Shown one piece after another: positions 2,854-7,782 of a stretch of DNA of 64,000 bases. The stretch spans positions 47,470-111,469 of the forward strand of contig CACYSQ010000004.1 of assembly GCA_902777125.1 (NCBI GenBank), in the 5' to 3' direction. Under the pieces are notes generated by a model that did no database searches, was not told where the DNA came from, and was given only the letters and a program-made list of their open reading frames with translations. The position numbers were made by a program, and so were the translations under genes. Position 1 is the first letter of the stretch; every line of letters starts with the position of its first letter. Source of the stretch: Ruminococcus flavefaciens (GTDB lineage Bacteria; Bacillota; Clostridia; Oscillospirales; Ruminococcaceae).

Positions 2854-2919
2854 ATTTTCCTCCATTTCGGGTTTCAGCTTTTAGCGAAAAATCCACGGCA
2901 TGAGCCGGAATTAATAATT

Positions 2920-2948
2920 ATTATAACCTTTTTACAGCTCTATGTCAA
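2920..2948 (-). promoter_or_regulatory. SigA-type promoter of the sortase operon
   Basis: Perfect TTGACA-17 bp-TATAAT on the minus strand. Confidence 0.8.
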
Positions 2949-2974
2949 TAAAAACAGGCGCTTTTTCACGCAAT

Positions 2975-4018
2975 TTACACATATCCTCCGGAAAAGAGTT
3001 TCCTTCTGAGCAGCACAAGGTCGTAAACATCGAGCTTTGAATTGCCGTTGAGGTCGTAGGCTTTGTAGTTCTCAGCAGTTATCCTCTCCTGCGGTCTGCC
3101 GAGAAGATGTCCGGCAAGGCTGACAAGATCGGCAACATCATACTGCACTTCCGGCTGACCTTTTGAAGTGTCGGTCTCCCCTGTCGGGAGCTCAGTGCCG
3201 CTGATGTGAGCCTCCAGTACGCCAGCCCAGTACCTTCCCATTTTCTCATAGCCCTGCTCGTTCGGGTGAACGCCGTCATAGAGATCAGCTTTCATGTCCA
3301 CAACGCTGTGGATATCGGCAAAGCGGACGTCCCTGCCCTCACCCTGCATTTTTGCGGCAAGCGCCTTTATCGAGGCATTGTAGCTGTCGATGTGTCCCTG
3401 AACTATCTCCGCAAAAGCCTCGGGAGTGCTGTTCCACTTGACCTCGCCATAAGCCCATAGCCAGTCGCTCACAAGCGAAACGTCGATATCGGGGATAGTC
3501 GTGACGTAGACGGTCCGGCAGCCCTCATCGAGGATATAGGTTATAAGGTTCTCAAGTCGGTCCGTGATGCCGTCGTTGTAAGCGCTGAGGATATCGTTCG
3601 TGCCTATCTGAAGCAGCACGATATCAGGCGAAAATTTTCTGATATAGTCACCATTCTGCAAGGTCTCGAGAATGCCCTGACGAGCCTCCGTACCGTTCAT
3701 CTGCTGGATAGCATAGCCGCTGTATCCGGCGTAGTTGCCGTCATAGTAAACCTGCTTTCCCTTATATTCAAAGGTCTCGCTGTTCGAGCCCTTGGGTCCC
3801 ACGAGGTCGATGCCGGTATAGCCGTCCTCCGCAAGAGCACACCACATATATTTCCTGTAACCGCCCTGCTCCCAGTAGCCGTCCGTTATGGAATCTCCTA
3901 CAGGCATGACTTTGAGGAAGGTATTGTTCCCGCCCTCCGAGGCACCGCCCGGAACTGCCGGATAAGATATGAGAACTGACGCTGATGCAGCAAGCGCTGC
4001 CGTAAATCTTTTTAACAT
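2975..4018 (-). CDS. SGNH/GDSL carbohydrate esterase (CE3-like) with C-terminal dockerin
   Basis: Signal peptide; SGNH blocks GDSIT, AGYSG, QIGTND, DGVHP; C-terminal DLNGNSKLDVYDLVLLRR dockerin repeat. Start at ATG 4018 (ORF track GTG 4027). Confidence 0.85.
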   Translation of the reverse strand: MLKRFTAALAASASVLISYPAVPGGASEGGNNTFLKVMPVGDSITDGYWEQGGYRKYMWCALAEDGYTGIDLVGPKGSNSETFEYKGKQVYYDGNYAGYSGYAIQQMNGTEARQGILETLQNGDYIRKFSPDIVLLQIGTNDILSAYNDGITDRLENLITYILDEGCRTVYVTTIPDIDVSLVSDWLWAYGEVKWNSTPEAFAEIVQGHIDSYNASIKALAAKMQGEGRDVRFADIHSVVDMKADLYDGVHPNEQGYEKMGRYWAGVLEAHISGTELPTGETDTSKGQPEVQYDVADLVSLAGHLLGRPQERITAENYKAYDLNGNSKLDVYDLVLLRRKLFSGGYV

Positions 4019-4040
4019 GGATATCACCCCTTATGCACCT

Positions 4041-4069
4041 ATTTTACCACATCTTTATGCATTTTTCAA
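4041..4069 (-). promoter_or_regulatory. SigA-type promoter of the SGNH esterase gene
   Basis: TTGAAA-17 bp-TAAAAT with TG extension. Confidence 0.6.
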
Positions 4070-4116
4070 GCTCTGTGAAAAAACAAGTCTATTTCATAAA
4101 TGTTTACAAAATGTTC

Positions 4117-4145
4117 TTGATTTTCTTGATTATAGATGTTATAAT
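4117..4145 (+). promoter_or_regulatory. SigA-type promoter of the diguanylate cyclase/SBP operon
   Basis: TTGATT-17 bp-TATAAT with TG extension. Confidence 0.65.
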
Positions 4146-4180
4146 TAATTAAACGTTAATCCGTTCTCACAGGAGTTAAT

Positions 4181-5695
4181 ATGGATAAGGATATTAAAAT
4201 TAATGATCGTTCCGGAGCAAATAAACTCCGCCGGCTGAAAGCAGCCCTGATAATCGGCAATGCCCTCATAATACTGCTCTCAATAACCTTCGTGTCGGTT
4301 CTTGCTGTAAAAAAGACCGACAAGGTGCTCAAAAACAAGGTCAGCACTATGGCGACCTCCCTGAACGTGCAGATGAAGCTCAACCTCGAAAGCTACCTCT
4401 CGCGCATGGAGACCATTGCTACCCTCGCATTCGGTGCGGAGGAAGCCTATACATACGATGCTACCTCTCCCGATAATGATCAATTTGAGGCTATCAACAC
4501 TGAAAAGATCATTTCCGATAAGCTGTTCAGCCTTTGTATCATGGAGAATTTCGTGGATTACGGCATAGTCTACAGGAACAACAGAACTGTCGGCAAGATC
4601 TCCAACGGTACAAAAAATCTCTTCGGAGACCACATCTTCGACGACCTCAGTGCAATGATAACACGCACTCACGCTCATGACGGCTGGGCTACCGGCTACA
4701 ATGACGATTTCACAAGGATATACTACGTCAAGAAGATACACGACAACGCTATCCTCGTTATCTCGTTCTACGGCTCTGAGCTCGGAAAAGTTTTCGACAA
4801 CCCCGAGACTATGACCGGCATGGACGTCCGTCTCACTGACAATAACTACAACGTTATCTATTCCTCCCAGCGCGAAGAAGTCGGAAAGGTTCTGCAAGAC
4901 GATATCCGCAGCCGCGCAGAGGGCAAGAATTCCATGACGTTCATGGACGACCAGTACCTTATCACCGTCAATAACAGCGGCGAACACTGGTATGTCATCT
5001 GTTCTGTCCCGACAAAGATGATACTCAACGAGAAGAACGATATGGAGCTCTATATTCTCATGGTTGCACTTGCTGCGTCTGTTATCGCGATTTTGCTGGG
5101 CATCGAGCTTTCACTCCACATAACCGCGCCTGTTACCAACGTTGTTTCAACCCTCGACAGCAAGGCTCACAAGGACCTCCTCACAGGTCTGCTCAACAAG
5201 CGTTCTTTCGAGGAAACTGCCGGAAGCGCTCTTTCGTCCTCGCTTTCACTCTCTCCCCGTGCTATAATACTCCTTGACCTCGACAACTTCAAGGGCGTGA
5301 ACGATACCCTCGGTCATTCCTACGGCGACAAGGTGCTCGAAAACGTCGGAGAGATTCTCCGCAGAACATTCTCCGATGAGGACTACCTCGGAAGGATAGG
5401 CGGCGATGAATTCGCTGTATTTCTGAATTCTGCACCTAAGAACAAGGATATCCGCGAATACGTCACCGAAAAATGCGATCAGCTCTGCGAGGAATTCCGC
5501 AATAACTATACCGGCAGCGACGGCAGCTACAAGATCTCCGGCAGTATAGGCGTTACGCTCTTCCCTGCCGACGGCAGAGAGTATCCGGAGCTTTACTCAA
5601 AGGCTGATACCGCGCTCTATCACTCCAAGAAAGTCGGAAAGGACACCTATACTTTCTATTCCGAGCAGCTTGAAGGGGAGGCTGAGAAAAAATGA
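4181..5695 (+). CDS. Membrane diguanylate cyclase (TM, Cache-like sensor, TM, GGDEF)
   Basis: Two TM helices flanking an extracytoplasmic domain; DLLTGLLNKR, LDLDNFKGVNDTLGH and RIGGDEF motifs intact. Confidence 0.9.
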   Translation: MDKDIKINDRSGANKLRRLKAALIIGNALIILLSITFVSVLAVKKTDKVLKNKVSTMATSLNVQMKLNLESYLSRMETIATLAFGAEEAYTYDATSPDNDQFEAINTEKIISDKLFSLCIMENFVDYGIVYRNNRTVGKISNGTKNLFGDHIFDDLSAMITRTHAHDGWATGYNDDFTRIYYVKKIHDNAILVISFYGSELGKVFDNPETMTGMDVRLTDNNYNVIYSSQREEVGKVLQDDIRSRAEGKNSMTFMDDQYLITVNNSGEHWYVICSVPTKMILNEKNDMELYILMVALAASVIAILLGIELSLHITAPVTNVVSTLDSKAHKDLLTGLLNKRSFEETAGSALSSSLSLSPRAIILLDLDNFKGVNDTLGHSYGDKVLENVGEILRRTFSDEDYLGRIGGDEFAVFLNSAPKNKDIREYVTEKCDQLCEEFRNNYTGSDGSYKISGSIGVTLFPADGREYPELYSKADTALYHSKKVGKDTYTFYSEQLEGEAEKK

Positions 5696-6951
5696 TCTAT
5701 CCCAAACGAATAATGTGTCTTGTCTCAGCCGCCTCGGTACTGCTCTGCACAGGCTGTGCCAGCGACGAAGTGGTACGCTCACACAGGGAGCAGGTCGAGA
5801 TAACGCTCGCATGGTGGGGCAATGACGCCCGTCACGAGTACACTATAAAGGGCATCGAGGCTTTCGAGGAGCTCCACCCCGATATCAAGGTCAACCTGAG
5901 CTATTCTGAATGGTCGGGCTACGAAGCGCGTAACCGTGTCCGCATGATTGCAGGCTCCGAGACCGATGTCATGCAGATAAATGTCGGCTGGATAAAAGCA
6001 TTTTCCCCTGACGGCAAGGGTTATTACGACATAGAGGAGCTCGACAGCTATGTTGATCTTTCATCGTTCACCGAGGATAAACTGAACTACGGCAGAGTGA
6101 ACGGTATACTCAACGCCGTTCCGATCGCCATGAACGCCGAGACCGTCTACATCAACAAGACCATCTATGAAAAATACGGTCTATCCGTTCCACAGACATG
6201 GGACGATTACTTCAATGCGGCAAAGGTCATGAGCAAGGACGGTGTCTACCCTCTCTCCGGTGCGGGAAAGACCGTTTGGCTCTTGGCTATCGCCTATACC
6301 GAGCAAAAATGCGGCAAGACCATACTCGATGAAAACGGAAAGCTCAACTTCAGCAAGAACGACCTCCGGACGATGATAAGCTTCTACAAGGAGCTTGTCG
6401 ATAAAAAGGTCATTCCGCAAGTCGAGTTCTACGACAGGCTCAATATCAACAGCGGTGATTACGCCGGTACGATAGCATGGGTCAGCGATGCAAAGAATTA
6501 CTGCGGTACTGCGATAGATAACGGCTTCGAGGTGGTACCTGCTCCCTACCCTGCATTTTCAGCGGACAAAAGCGGTGACGGCTGGTACGCCAAGCCCGCA
6601 ACGCTCTACGCTATAAGCAAGAATACCGAACACCCGCGTGAGGCAGGTCTGCTGCTCGATTTCCTCCTCAACAGCAACGAAATGGCTCTGCTTCAGGGTA
6701 TCGAGAAGGGCATTCCCCTTAGCGAAAAAGCTCTCGGAGCTCTCGACGAAGCAGGTATGCTCTCAGGCTTGCAGTACGACGCTTCACTTGTAATGGACAA
6801 CAACACAAGAATATCCCAAATGGACCCGGCACTCGAAAATACTTCTGTGATCGATAAATACATAGATTTCTGCAACCTCGTCATCTATGACAAATCCACC
6901 CTCGATGAGACCGCGGAAGCCCTCTATGCTGATTTACAGAAAGATCTATGA
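5692..6951 (+). CDS. ABC-type sugar-binding lipoprotein, TogB (oligogalacturonide-binding)-like
   Basis: Lipobox LCTGC; LAWWGNDARHEYT, FSPDGKGYY and KPATLYAISKNTEHPREA..FLLNS..G.EKGIPLS resemble TogB from recall; ATGA overlap with the DGC stop. Confidence 0.85.
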   Translation: MIYPKRIMCLVSAASVLLCTGCASDEVVRSHREQVEITLAWWGNDARHEYTIKGIEAFEELHPDIKVNLSYSEWSGYEARNRVRMIAGSETDVMQINVGWIKAFSPDGKGYYDIEELDSYVDLSSFTEDKLNYGRVNGILNAVPIAMNAETVYINKTIYEKYGLSVPQTWDDYFNAAKVMSKDGVYPLSGAGKTVWLLAIAYTEQKCGKTILDENGKLNFSKNDLRTMISFYKELVDKKVIPQVEFYDRLNINSGDYAGTIAWVSDAKNYCGTAIDNGFEVVPAPYPAFSADKSGDGWYAKPATLYAISKNTEHPREAGLLLDFLLNSNEMALLQGIEKGIPLSEKALGALDEAGMLSGLQYDASLVMDNNTRISQMDPALENTSVIDKYIDFCNLVIYDKSTLDETAEALYADLQKDL

Positions 6952-6956
6952 TAACG

Positions 6957-6997
6957 AAAACAGGCTGTGCATACATCTTGCACAGCCTGTTGTTTTT
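6957..6997. terminator. Bidirectional intrinsic terminator
   Basis: 11-bp stem CAGGCTGTGCA/TGCACAGCCTG with A-run left and T-run right, between convergent genes. Confidence 0.85.
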
Positions 6998-6998
6998 C

Positions 6999-7232
6999 TC
7001 ATTCAAAGGAATCAAGGTCGATGTCCTTGAGAAGATCCTTGAGCTCGGCAAGCTCATCAGCGGTAAGCGTAACGCCCTTGCCCATTCTTGAATGATCGGG
7101 AGACCATTCGCGTATATCGTATTTAGGATCGTGATCGTTCCAGCTCACAAGGTTGAGCTCCTTCGTCCAACCCTTTGCATTCTCAGAAAGAACGCCTATC
7201 TTCTCTGTTATCTCGTATTTTAGCTCTGCCAT
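6999..7232 (-). CDS. ydbC: YdbC/PC4-like ssDNA-binding protein
   Basis: YEITEKIGVLSENAKGWTKELNLVSWND..PKYDIREWSPDH.RMGKGVTL signature; AAGGAG RBS before ATG 7232. Confidence 0.85.
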   Translation of the reverse strand: MAELKYEITEKIGVLSENAKGWTKELNLVSWNDHDPKYDIREWSPDHSRMGKGVTLTADELAELKDLLKDIDLDSFE

Positions 7233-7397
7233 TTCCGGCACTCCTTTCTTTGCAGCTATGAGACTGCGGTTCTGATTGCCCTTTCAGGTCAAACTTATTT
7301 TACCATAAATATTTTGATTTGTCCATACCCCGAATGAAAAAAATATTATTCTTCCGCAGTCAAAGACCTGCCGGCTGTTCAGCACACACTATCCGGA

Positions 7398-7427: not shown

Positions 7428-7437
7428 AATTGCTGTA

Positions 7438-7782
7438 GTGACCAGACCGATAAGCCGGGTTCTGTCGTGTGCGGTAATTTATCTACGCTTACCGTCGCCG
7501 GCAAGCTCAAGCCGCCATTACTGTACGTCCGCCGAGCAGACGTTGAGACGCACAGTACCAATAGACGTTGCATCGGATAGGGTTTACATAGCAGTACAGT
7601 CTCCTGCACTCTGGTGAGCTCTTACCTCGCCTTTCCACCATCACCGTCCCGGAGGACGGCAGTATATCTCTGTTGCACTTGCCCTAAGGTCGCCCTCGGC
7701 TGCCGTTAGCAGCTACCCTGCTCTGTGATGCCCGGACTTTCCTCGTAAACTTAACGTTTCCGCTACCGCATGGTCTGCTCAT
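7438..7782 (-). ncRNA. rnpB: RNase P RNA (type A)
   Basis: Universal motifs GAGGAAAGUCCGGGC near the 5' end and GACAGAACCCGGCUUAUCGGUCUG at the 3' end; AAGUGCAACAGA; P1, P2 and P18 pairings can be drawn. Ends approximate. Confidence 0.95.

Follow-up and report, generated by a model that had tools for sequence, protein, structure and literature searches.

A TogB-family lipoprotein and a double-Cache diguanylate cyclase form a conserved pair in Ruminococcus flavefaciens: a candidate receptor for pectic oligosaccharides

Introduction

The window analysed here is a stretch of 64,000 nucleotides from Ruminococcus flavefaciens (assembly GCA_902777125.1, contig CACYSQ010000004.1, positions 47,470 to 111,469 of the forward strand), and the system in question is a two-gene unit on its + strand, within positions 4117-6997, in which the gene for a membrane diguanylate cyclase (P0001) is followed by the gene for a solute-binding lipoprotein of the TogB family (P0002). 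We propose that the two proteins probably make up one sensory device, a receptor that depends on its solute-binding protein (SBP) and would report acidic pectic oligosaccharides as cyclic di-GMP (c-di-GMP), in analogy to the NspS-MbaA system. Taken separately, SBP-dependent signalling by the pair is likely, and oligogalacturonides are somewhat favoured as its ligand. The case that the partners work together is built in part on the fusion of the two components in nature and on the reuse of the pair with three types of output, as gene fusion and reuse are classic indicators of two proteins acting together. The case for the ligand is built on homology to TogB and on two published contact residues of that protein. 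To our knowledge, hardly any diguanylate cyclase has a known input, and next to nothing has been published on c-di-GMP signalling in the bacteria that degrade fibre in the rumen.

Results

The cyclase and SBP genes form one transcribed unit

The unit had originally been predicted as two genes with a promoter and a terminator of their own and an ATGA overlap between them, and each of these elements is present; what has been clarified is the gene order, with the cyclase gene preceding the SBP gene. A sigma-70-type promoter (TTGATT-17-TATAAT with an extended TG) at 4117-4145 (+) is predicted to drive the unit. A Shine-Dalgarno sequence, AGGAG at 4171-4175 (+) by direct reading of the sequence, precedes the ATG of the cyclase gene at 4181, and this gene extends over 4181-5695 (+). 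The Shine-Dalgarno sequence of the SBP gene, GGGGAGG at 5674-5680 (+), is located within the 3′ end of the cyclase gene, 11 nt 5′ of the second ATG, and the SBP gene occupies 5692-6951 (+). The stop codon of one gene and the start codon of the other share the ATGA at 5692-5695 (+), an arrangement that is predicted to couple their translation. Downstream, a bidirectional intrinsic terminator (13-bp stem with seven GC pairs, followed by a T-run) closes the unit at 6959-6991 (+).

Transcription of the unit is seen in a sheep-rumen metatranscriptome, whose contigs cover positions 4198-6914, with 4198 as the first and 6914 as the last base, and one contig of 1827 nt spans the junction of the cyclase and SBP genes at 99.5% identity. 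In the same metatranscriptome, no RNA contigs lie over 2900-4096, leaving the esterase gene uncovered. Because this adjacent gene has no RNA contig over it at all, carry-over of DNA is argued against as the source of the contigs over the pair.

P0001 combines a dCache-type ectodomain with an intact GGDEF domain

The cyclase is a protein of 504 residues that is predicted to contain, in order, a first transmembrane helix (TM1), an extracytoplasmic double-Cache (dCache) sensor domain, a second transmembrane helix (TM2), a signalling helix and a GGDEF domain. The C-terminal GGDEF domain (aa 329-488, 5165-5644, E 1.5e-37) is the sole significant Pfam domain of P0001, EAL and HAMP domains were not found by Pfam, and for the N-terminal 325 residues there was no significant sequence match in Pfam or the PDB. 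Two hydrophobic stretches are assigned as the membrane helices: TM1, at approximately aa 22-43 (4244-4309; LKAALIIGNALIILLSITFVSVLAV), lies in a long N-terminal helix, and TM2, at approximately aa 291-313 (5051-5119; LYILMVALAASVIAILLGIELSL), runs into the signalling helix, which ends near aa 352. An AlphaFold2 (AF2) model of the whole protein reached a predicted local distance difference test score (pLDDT) of 82, with helices at residues 11-83 and 278-352, and a model of residues 44-292 alone reached a pLDDT of 88 and a predicted template modelling score (pTM) of 0.82. In these models, a long helix containing TM1 leads into two PAS-like modules, from which a second long helix containing TM2 continues straight into the GGDEF domain.

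The ectodomain (aa 44-290, 4310-5050) was assigned by comparing its model with the PDB in Foldseek, where all 50 of the matches listed were sensor domains of the tandem-PAS/dCache type, including Bacillus subtilis McpB, Vibrio Mlp24 and Mlp37, PctA and DctB, with a probability of 1.00 and a TMq that was mostly 0.5-0.75 and at most 0.75. When the model of the whole cyclase was used as the query, GGDEF matches prevailed and little was learned about the ectodomain. The Pfam dCache_1 model aligned weakly to the ectodomain over model positions 3-225 of 240 (E 0.11), scoring 12.5 bits against a cut-off of 45. Judged by its modelled fold, the ectodomain is best classed as a dCache domain, though it is missed by Pfam dCache_1, and the "Cache" label that it had been given originally is right at the level of fold.

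The catalytic half of the protein has the expected residues. Its GGDEF motif is intact (RIGGDEF at aa 405-411; the motif itself at 5399-5413), and this motif, together with D366, D368, F370, K371, N374, D375, G378 and H379 of the DxDxFKxxNDxxGH block, is invariant in 31 homologues. P0001 therefore appears to carry the intact GGDEF motif and the metal- and GTP-binding residues found in catalytically active diguanylate cyclases. The RxxD motif of the primary I-site, expected five residues upstream of GGDEF, is missing in P0001, where the sequence reads SDED-YLGRI-GGDEF (consensus FSxEDxLGRIGGDEF), so that product inhibition via that site would not be expected. Mean pairwise identity is 54.6% in the ectodomain versus 48.0% in the catalytic domain, and is highest, at 60%, in the membrane-distal module. 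Such conservation is unusual for a sensor domain; it fits a constrained protein-protein surface, and it fits a conserved ligand pocket equally well.

P0002 is a predicted lipoprotein homologous to TogB

The second protein of the pair is 419 residues long, and SBP_bac_1 is its best Pfam family (E 2.5e-28), with SBP_bac_8 also scoring over its cut-off. Its signal peptide (5692-5757, +) ends in an atypical lipobox (LLCTG-C) at Cys22, and in nearly all orthologues the equivalent place is occupied by a standard L-x-[GAS]-C. Because this terminal cysteine of the signal peptide is kept in nearly all of them, a membrane-tethered lipoprotein is the sensible reading of P0002.

The closest solved structure is TogB of Yersinia enterocolitica (YeTogB), with 2uvh_A matching at E 4.1e-62 (query residues 31-410 against chain residues 3-394) and 2uvg found too; the identity of P0002 to YeTogB is approximately 38%. 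The next solved relatives are far behind, namely YesO (5z6b, E 5e-32) and other sugar-binding SBPs. The resemblance to TogB had at first been proposed from three motifs, and it proves to be true homology that extends over P0002 residues 31-410; the motifs themselves, AWWGNDARHE, FSPDGKGYY and KPATLYAISKNTEHPREAGLLLDFLLNS, are all present and align with the equivalent motifs of TogB. S271 and Y276 have been named as ligand contacts of TogB (PMC8839585). They correspond to S265 and Y270 of P0002 (22-residue offset), and both residues are invariant in 34 homologues, 30 of them linked to receptors and four to permeases, in a comparison for which these were the only two published contacts available. 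Likewise invariant in the 34 homologues are W41, W42, R47, W74, Q95, N97, W100, W263 and K301.

The pair is conserved as a pair and occurs without a Tog-type permease

Homologues of the ectodomain region number 457 in a large protein collection, and nearly all are GGDEF proteins of approximately 500 aa; those with a name are mostly from Ruminococcus, R. albus and strain NK3A76 among them. Immediately downstream of the cyclase gene, the next gene on that strand encodes the SBP in six of six genomes of the family and in 23 of 23 genome_contigs loci (29/29), with a 4-nt overlap of the two genes in 13 of the 29 loci and a 1-nt overlap in three. These loci come from R. flavefaciens, other Ruminococcus and Oscillospiraceae and, at a cyclase identity of 30-36%, from Lachnospiraceae, Eubacterium and Mageeibacillus. 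When all open reading frames (ORFs) in the flanks, of up to 7 kb, were clustered, the cyclase and SBP genes were the only conserved neighbours. Identities of the ectodomain and the SBP correlate with r = 0.93, and those of the GGDEF domain and the SBP with r = 0.87, both values being inflated by shared phylogeny.

Permeases were looked for around the pair and across genomes. In the window, neither of the genes flanking the pair has an ABC-transporter domain in Pfam, and a TogM-like CUT1 permease is absent from the whole 111-kb contig, in agreement with the original prediction that no permease or ATPase gene is adjacent. The 23 genome_contigs loci also lack a Tog-like permease near the pair, within flanks of up to 7 kb that are shorter at contig ends. 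Besides P0002, a single TogB homologue is encoded in the source genome (2.62 Mb, 97.5% complete); it is 37% identical to P0002 and lies on a different contig (C3).

This paralogue belongs to a transporter-type operon (C3:78251-82414) that encodes the TogB-like lipoprotein, two BPD_transp_1 (CUT1) permeases and an unsaturated uronyl hydrolase of the GH88/GH105 type, with no adjacent ATPase gene. Its gene content is that of a canonical uptake operon for uronate oligosaccharides generated by lyases, and transport would therefore be covered by a gene set separate from the pair.

Whether the SBP is an orphan was then examined in six other genera of the family in which an orthologue of the cyclase is present. 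In three genomes (G081, G052 and G037), the cyclase-linked protein is the sole TogB homologue, and in a fourth (G032), there is just one more TogB homologue, which is the SBP of a second cyclase-SBP pair. All four carry the pair, and none has a Tog-type permease, the best matches being 27-31% identical; permease matches reach 66% and 40% identity in the two genomes with a transporter-type TogB. By gene content, the pair occurs in the absence of a Tog-type permease and appears to need no transporter.

Further copies of the cyclase gene were also seen. In some genomes there is a second, distant cyclase-SBP pair, as on contig C17 of G032 (L100), with a cyclase identity of 27-44%, and several second cyclase copies in the genus are interrupted by in-frame stop codons, a pattern suggestive of paralogue turnover. 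At one locus in an Oscillospiraceae metagenome-assembled genome (L032:6866-9252), the dCache part lies in a 372-aa ORF that has no GGDEF domain and retains the 4-nt overlap with the SBP gene; this ORF could be a copy that is truncated or in decay, or else a receptor that lacks a recognisable output domain.

The same input pair is found with chemoreceptor and histidine kinase outputs

An ectodomain profile searched against 1.84 billion representative proteins gave a small family of 288 representatives, most of which are GGDEF proteins; each stands for a cluster at 50% identity, so that the family comprises many more sequences. Seven of the longer members tested are chemoreceptors with a dCache-HAMP-MCPsignal architecture. 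At the three chemoreceptor loci examined (L103:5001-8312, L106:5001-8315 and L107:2046-5308), an SBP_bac_1 gene of 417-421 aa follows 13-27 nt downstream in every case, no permease gene is adjacent, and the SBP of the first shares 40% identity with P0002 along its whole length. These proteins are candidate SBP-dependent chemotaxis receptors for an equivalent class of ligand.

Two other longer members tested are hybrid kinases (dCache-HAMP-HisKA-HATPase-REC) in which a hydrophobic segment connects the kinase part to an SBP_bac_1 domain with an SWWGxDxRH motif. These natural fusions of SBP and kinase, P0250 and the product of L105:5001-8396 (GCA_963612475.1), have a lipobox-like FGAC or ASAC in the hydrophobic segment, and in P0250 this segment, FLSVIIIVALVLPFGAC, accounts for the topology from a cytoplasmic REC domain to an SBP on the outside. 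We considered whether the fusions, at 1131-1134 aa, could be read-through in gene calling, and rejected this, as P0250 lacks a Met where its two parts meet and the topology provided by FLSVIIIVALVLPFGAC is the one required. The L105 locus translates to the fusion query without a stop. For the fusions in general, a sequencing error is conceivable. Directly after the fused kinase of L105 there is a gene for a REC-HD_5 protein of the HD-GYP type, with uxaC approximately 4 kb downstream, an arrangement that may provide a phosphorelay route to the breakdown of c-di-GMP from a similar input.

All 35 of the receptor-linked SBPs in the tree, whether linked to cyclases, chemoreceptors or kinases, fall into one clade with a support of 0.989, from which the four permease-linked TogB homologues are separate. 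The interpretation of P0001 and P0002 as a sensor pair, which had originally been put forward from the window itself, is strengthened by this reuse with chemoreceptor and histidine kinase outputs and by the two fusions.

Neighbouring genes

Divergent to the pair is a gene for a secreted GDSL esterase (2975-4027, -; Pfam). It had been described as cellulosomal in the original prediction, of which the divergent esterase stands; "cellulosomal" is plausible, with weak support from a C-terminal dockerin-like segment that stays below the Pfam cut-off (E 9e-4, 19.8 bits against 22.9). By flank comparison, the esterase is not kept beside the pair in other genomes and serves here as context only. On the other side, an 80-aa ORF with a PC4/YdbC-like single-stranded-DNA-binding domain (6999-7241, -; Pfam PC4, E 2e-12) converges with the SBP gene on the shared bidirectional terminator. 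It is followed by a full-length gene for the bacterial class A RNase P RNA (rnpB, 7435-7781, -; 266.9 bits), which is covered at a very high level in rumen metatranscriptomes. A bPH_2 membrane protein is also encoded downstream of the pair.

Discussion

Relation to known receptors stimulated by binding proteins

Receptors stimulated by SBPs are an established class, for which a 2021 review gives chemoreceptors, kinases and only two c-di-GMP enzymes, MbaA-NspS and ScrC-ScrB, both from Vibrio, both GGDEF-EAL proteins with dCache-like ectodomains, and both sensors of polyamines or autoinducers (PMC8050422). The pair described here has the layout of an SBP-dependent c-di-GMP receptor: an SBP gene without a transporter is adjacent to, and co-transcribed with, the gene for a dCache-like GGDEF protein. 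In NspS-MbaA (Vibrio cholerae; also Sinorhizobium meliloti), an SBP homologue that does not act in transport is likewise encoded beside a membrane c-di-GMP enzyme, the periplasmic domain of MbaA is listed as dCache-like, and NspS signals the presence of a small molecule outside the cell, with control over biofilm formation (PMC8050422). The differences are in the components. NspS is an SBP_bac_8 protein for polyamines and MbaA a bifunctional GGDEF-EAL protein with a HAMP domain, both from Proteobacteria, whereas P0002 is a TogB-type SBP_bac_1 lipoprotein and P0001 has GGDEF as its sole output domain and lacks HAMP, EAL and an I-site, in a member of the Firmicutes. ScrB and ScrC of Vibrio parahaemolyticus are similarly an SBP and a GGDEF-EAL protein with a dCache-like ectodomain from one operon (PMC8050422); in contrast to the present pair, ScrB is an SBP_bac_3 protein whose ligand is the S-signal that ScrA produces, the operon consists of three genes, and ScrC switches between cyclase and phosphodiesterase. 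P0001-P0002 is best regarded, from its protein families, as an analogue of NspS-MbaA and ScrB-ScrC and not as a member of their families.

Other systems provide parallels for single parts of the proposal. TogB itself, from the oligogalacturonide transporter TogMNAB (Yersinia enterocolitica, PDB 2uvg-2uvj), shares with P0002 full-length homology, the equivalents of S271 and Y276, and WWGxxxR; it differs in that P0002 has no permease or ATPase partner, belongs to the receptor-linked clade and is a lipoprotein, whereas TogB is free in the periplasm, and the R. flavefaciens genome keeps a transporter-type paralogue. LuxP-LuxQ (Vibrio harveyi) and HptA-HptS (Staphylococcus aureus) are structural precedents for an SBP docked on an ectodomain of the tandem-PAS/dCache type (PMC8050422), although their outputs are histidine kinases, their SBPs belong to Peripla_BP_4 and SBP_bac_11, and their ligands are autoinducer-2 (AI-2) and glucose-6-phosphate, respectively. 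In ChvE-VirA (Agrobacterium tumefaciens), plant-wall sugars and sugar acids, including galacturonate and glucuronate, are sensed via an SBP on a dCache-like receptor (PMC8050422), but ChvE is a Peripla_BP_4 protein for monosaccharides that also serves a transporter, and the kinase output controls virulence genes. A paper on AI-2 and dCache domains in the rumen relied on the Pfam dCache_1 model (PMC9540692); since the ectodomain of P0001 fails that model, the paper speaks neither for nor against AI-2 binding here. The general design is known from Vibrio, and its sugar-type version in Firmicutes is undescribed in the literature searched, in which we found no paper tying TogB-like proteins to c-di-GMP or describing the pair of dCache-GGDEF protein and TogB-like SBP.

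A proposed mechanism

In the mechanism that we envisage, P0002 would be tethered as a lipoprotein to the outer face of the membrane, any transporter partner having been lost, and would capture acidic pectic oligosaccharides, most likely oligogalacturonides, saturated or 4,5-unsaturated, that pectate lyases of the organism itself set free. The loaded (or unloaded) SBP would then dock on the dCache ectodomain of a cyclase dimer. The resulting shift may pass via TM2 and the continuous signalling helix to the two GGDEF domains, altering how they pair and face one another and, with this, the rate of c-di-GMP synthesis, which could be raised or lowered. With no I-site, the output would not be limited by product feedback there. 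Downstream, the change in c-di-GMP may act on adhesion or biofilm formation.

The setting in the source genome is compatible in its parts. There are approximately 20 GGDEF and 12 EAL loci in its 2.6 Mb, and two PL1 pectate lyases are encoded in ORFs of more than 1000 aa.

Alternative explanations

Several findings weigh against this proposal or reduce what can be drawn from its evidence. On the output side, a PilZ domain protein was searched for in the source genome and none was found, and a search of the genome for c-di-GMP-I riboswitches gave no usable signal, with the control genomes silent too; inside the window there is no riboswitch. On the side of pectin, PL1 lyases occur in 61 of the 61 genomes (species) of the genus and the pair in 33 of them. 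Because the lyases are universal and the pair is present in about half of the genus, the phyletic pattern does not tie the pair to pectin. The distance correlation and the tree both rest on related sequences, and the tree includes only four transporter-type SBPs. At 37-40% identity and with two known contacts, the binding specificity of P0002 may differ from that of TogB; 12 positions are fixed differently in the receptor-linked SBP clade, including N44 beside WWG and A303 in the KPA motif, and some of these substitutions could lie in the pocket. Y50, E73, Y77, S87, K193 and K339 are likewise specific to that clade.

The same substitutions bear on an explanation that keeps the SBP-dependent dCache cyclase and exchanges its ligand for another plant-wall oligosaccharide, such as rhamnogalacturonan fragments or aldouronic acids derived from glucuronoxylan. 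We regard this as a real but clearly less probable alternative. Besides the 12 clade-specific positions, it gains from the identity to YeTogB of only about 38%, from the next solved relatives of P0002, such as YesO, which bind other pectic ligands or are uncharacterised, and from the GH88/GH105 family of the paralogue operon, which acts on several unsaturated uronyl oligosaccharides. It has to contend with TogB being by far the best match (E 4e-62 versus 5e-32 for YesO) and with the invariance of the two known TogB contacts and of the basic residues R47 and K301. A different possibility concerns the ectodomain, which might bind a small ligand of its own, leaving the SBP as a second input or modulator of a dual-input receptor. 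Nearly all dCache domains that have been studied bind their ligand in the membrane-distal module (PMC8050422), and this module is the most conserved one here, at 60% and with invariant W, Y, R and D residues, so its conservation could equally be that of a small-ligand pocket. The strict co-occurrence with a single SBP clade over three outputs and in fusions, however, would be hard to explain if the SBP were dispensable; the ectodomain also falls below the dCache_1 threshold and, by inspection by eye only, has DGW where PctA-type binders of amino acids or AI-2 have the RxW of their motif (R126, W128, Y144, D146, D173). A dual-input receptor of this kind is improbable on balance.

Two further explanations would take the sensing role away from P0002. 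The SBP could feed a CUT1 ABC permease encoded elsewhere, and stand beside the cyclase for co-expression only: there are orphan SBP genes whose products work with distant permeases, and the source genome has the TogMN-like permease pair on C3 as well as other CUT1 permeases. An unconserved pair with an SBP working for a permease elsewhere was one of the outcomes that the original prediction had itself named as speaking against it. What was found is adjacency in 29 of 29 loci with no other conserved neighbour and four pair-carrying genomes that have no Tog-type permease; moreover, members of the same SBP clade follow chemoreceptors and are fused to kinases, and the receptor-linked SBPs form a clade separate from the permease-linked ones, all of which makes service to a distant permease very improbable. 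It is also conceivable that the SBP fold has become a ligand-independent partner of the cyclase, a constitutive inhibitor or stabiliser in the manner of YfiR-YfiN, which is a functional analogy only. Ligand-free SBPs do bind their receptors in some systems (PMC8050422), but residues of the sugar-pocket type, including the two TogB contacts, are invariant in 34 sequences and point to retained ligand binding, and we give this explanation the least credence of all.

Implications for gut and rumen Clostridia

Returning to the SBP-dependent pectic receptor as the preferred explanation, we offer, more tentatively, a broader view in which this dCache subfamily and the TogB-derived SBP clade might be a portable two-protein input for gut and rumen Clostridia, attached in the majority of cases to c-di-GMP synthesis and in others to chemotaxis receptors and hybrid kinases, with cellulolytic ruminococci perhaps reading the products of pectate lyases as a sign that the plant wall has been opened locally. 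Homology to a binding protein of solved structure allows a guess at the input of this cyclase, and its candidate ligands are on sale, which makes the cyclase of a hard-to-handle anaerobe directly testable, be it in vitro or in a host suited to the laboratory.

If the proposal is true, cells without a Tog-type importer, as in several species, could switch surface behaviour controlled by c-di-GMP without taking up the sugar, and the pair would be the first diguanylate cyclase driven by a carbohydrate SBP and the first such system in Firmicutes. Confirmation would extend the list of SBP-stimulated c-di-GMP enzymes to plant polysaccharide fragments and to Firmicutes, would mean that second-messenger, chemotaxis and two-component outputs all draw on one sensor pair, and would provide a molecular link between the stripping of pectin and attachment to fibre.

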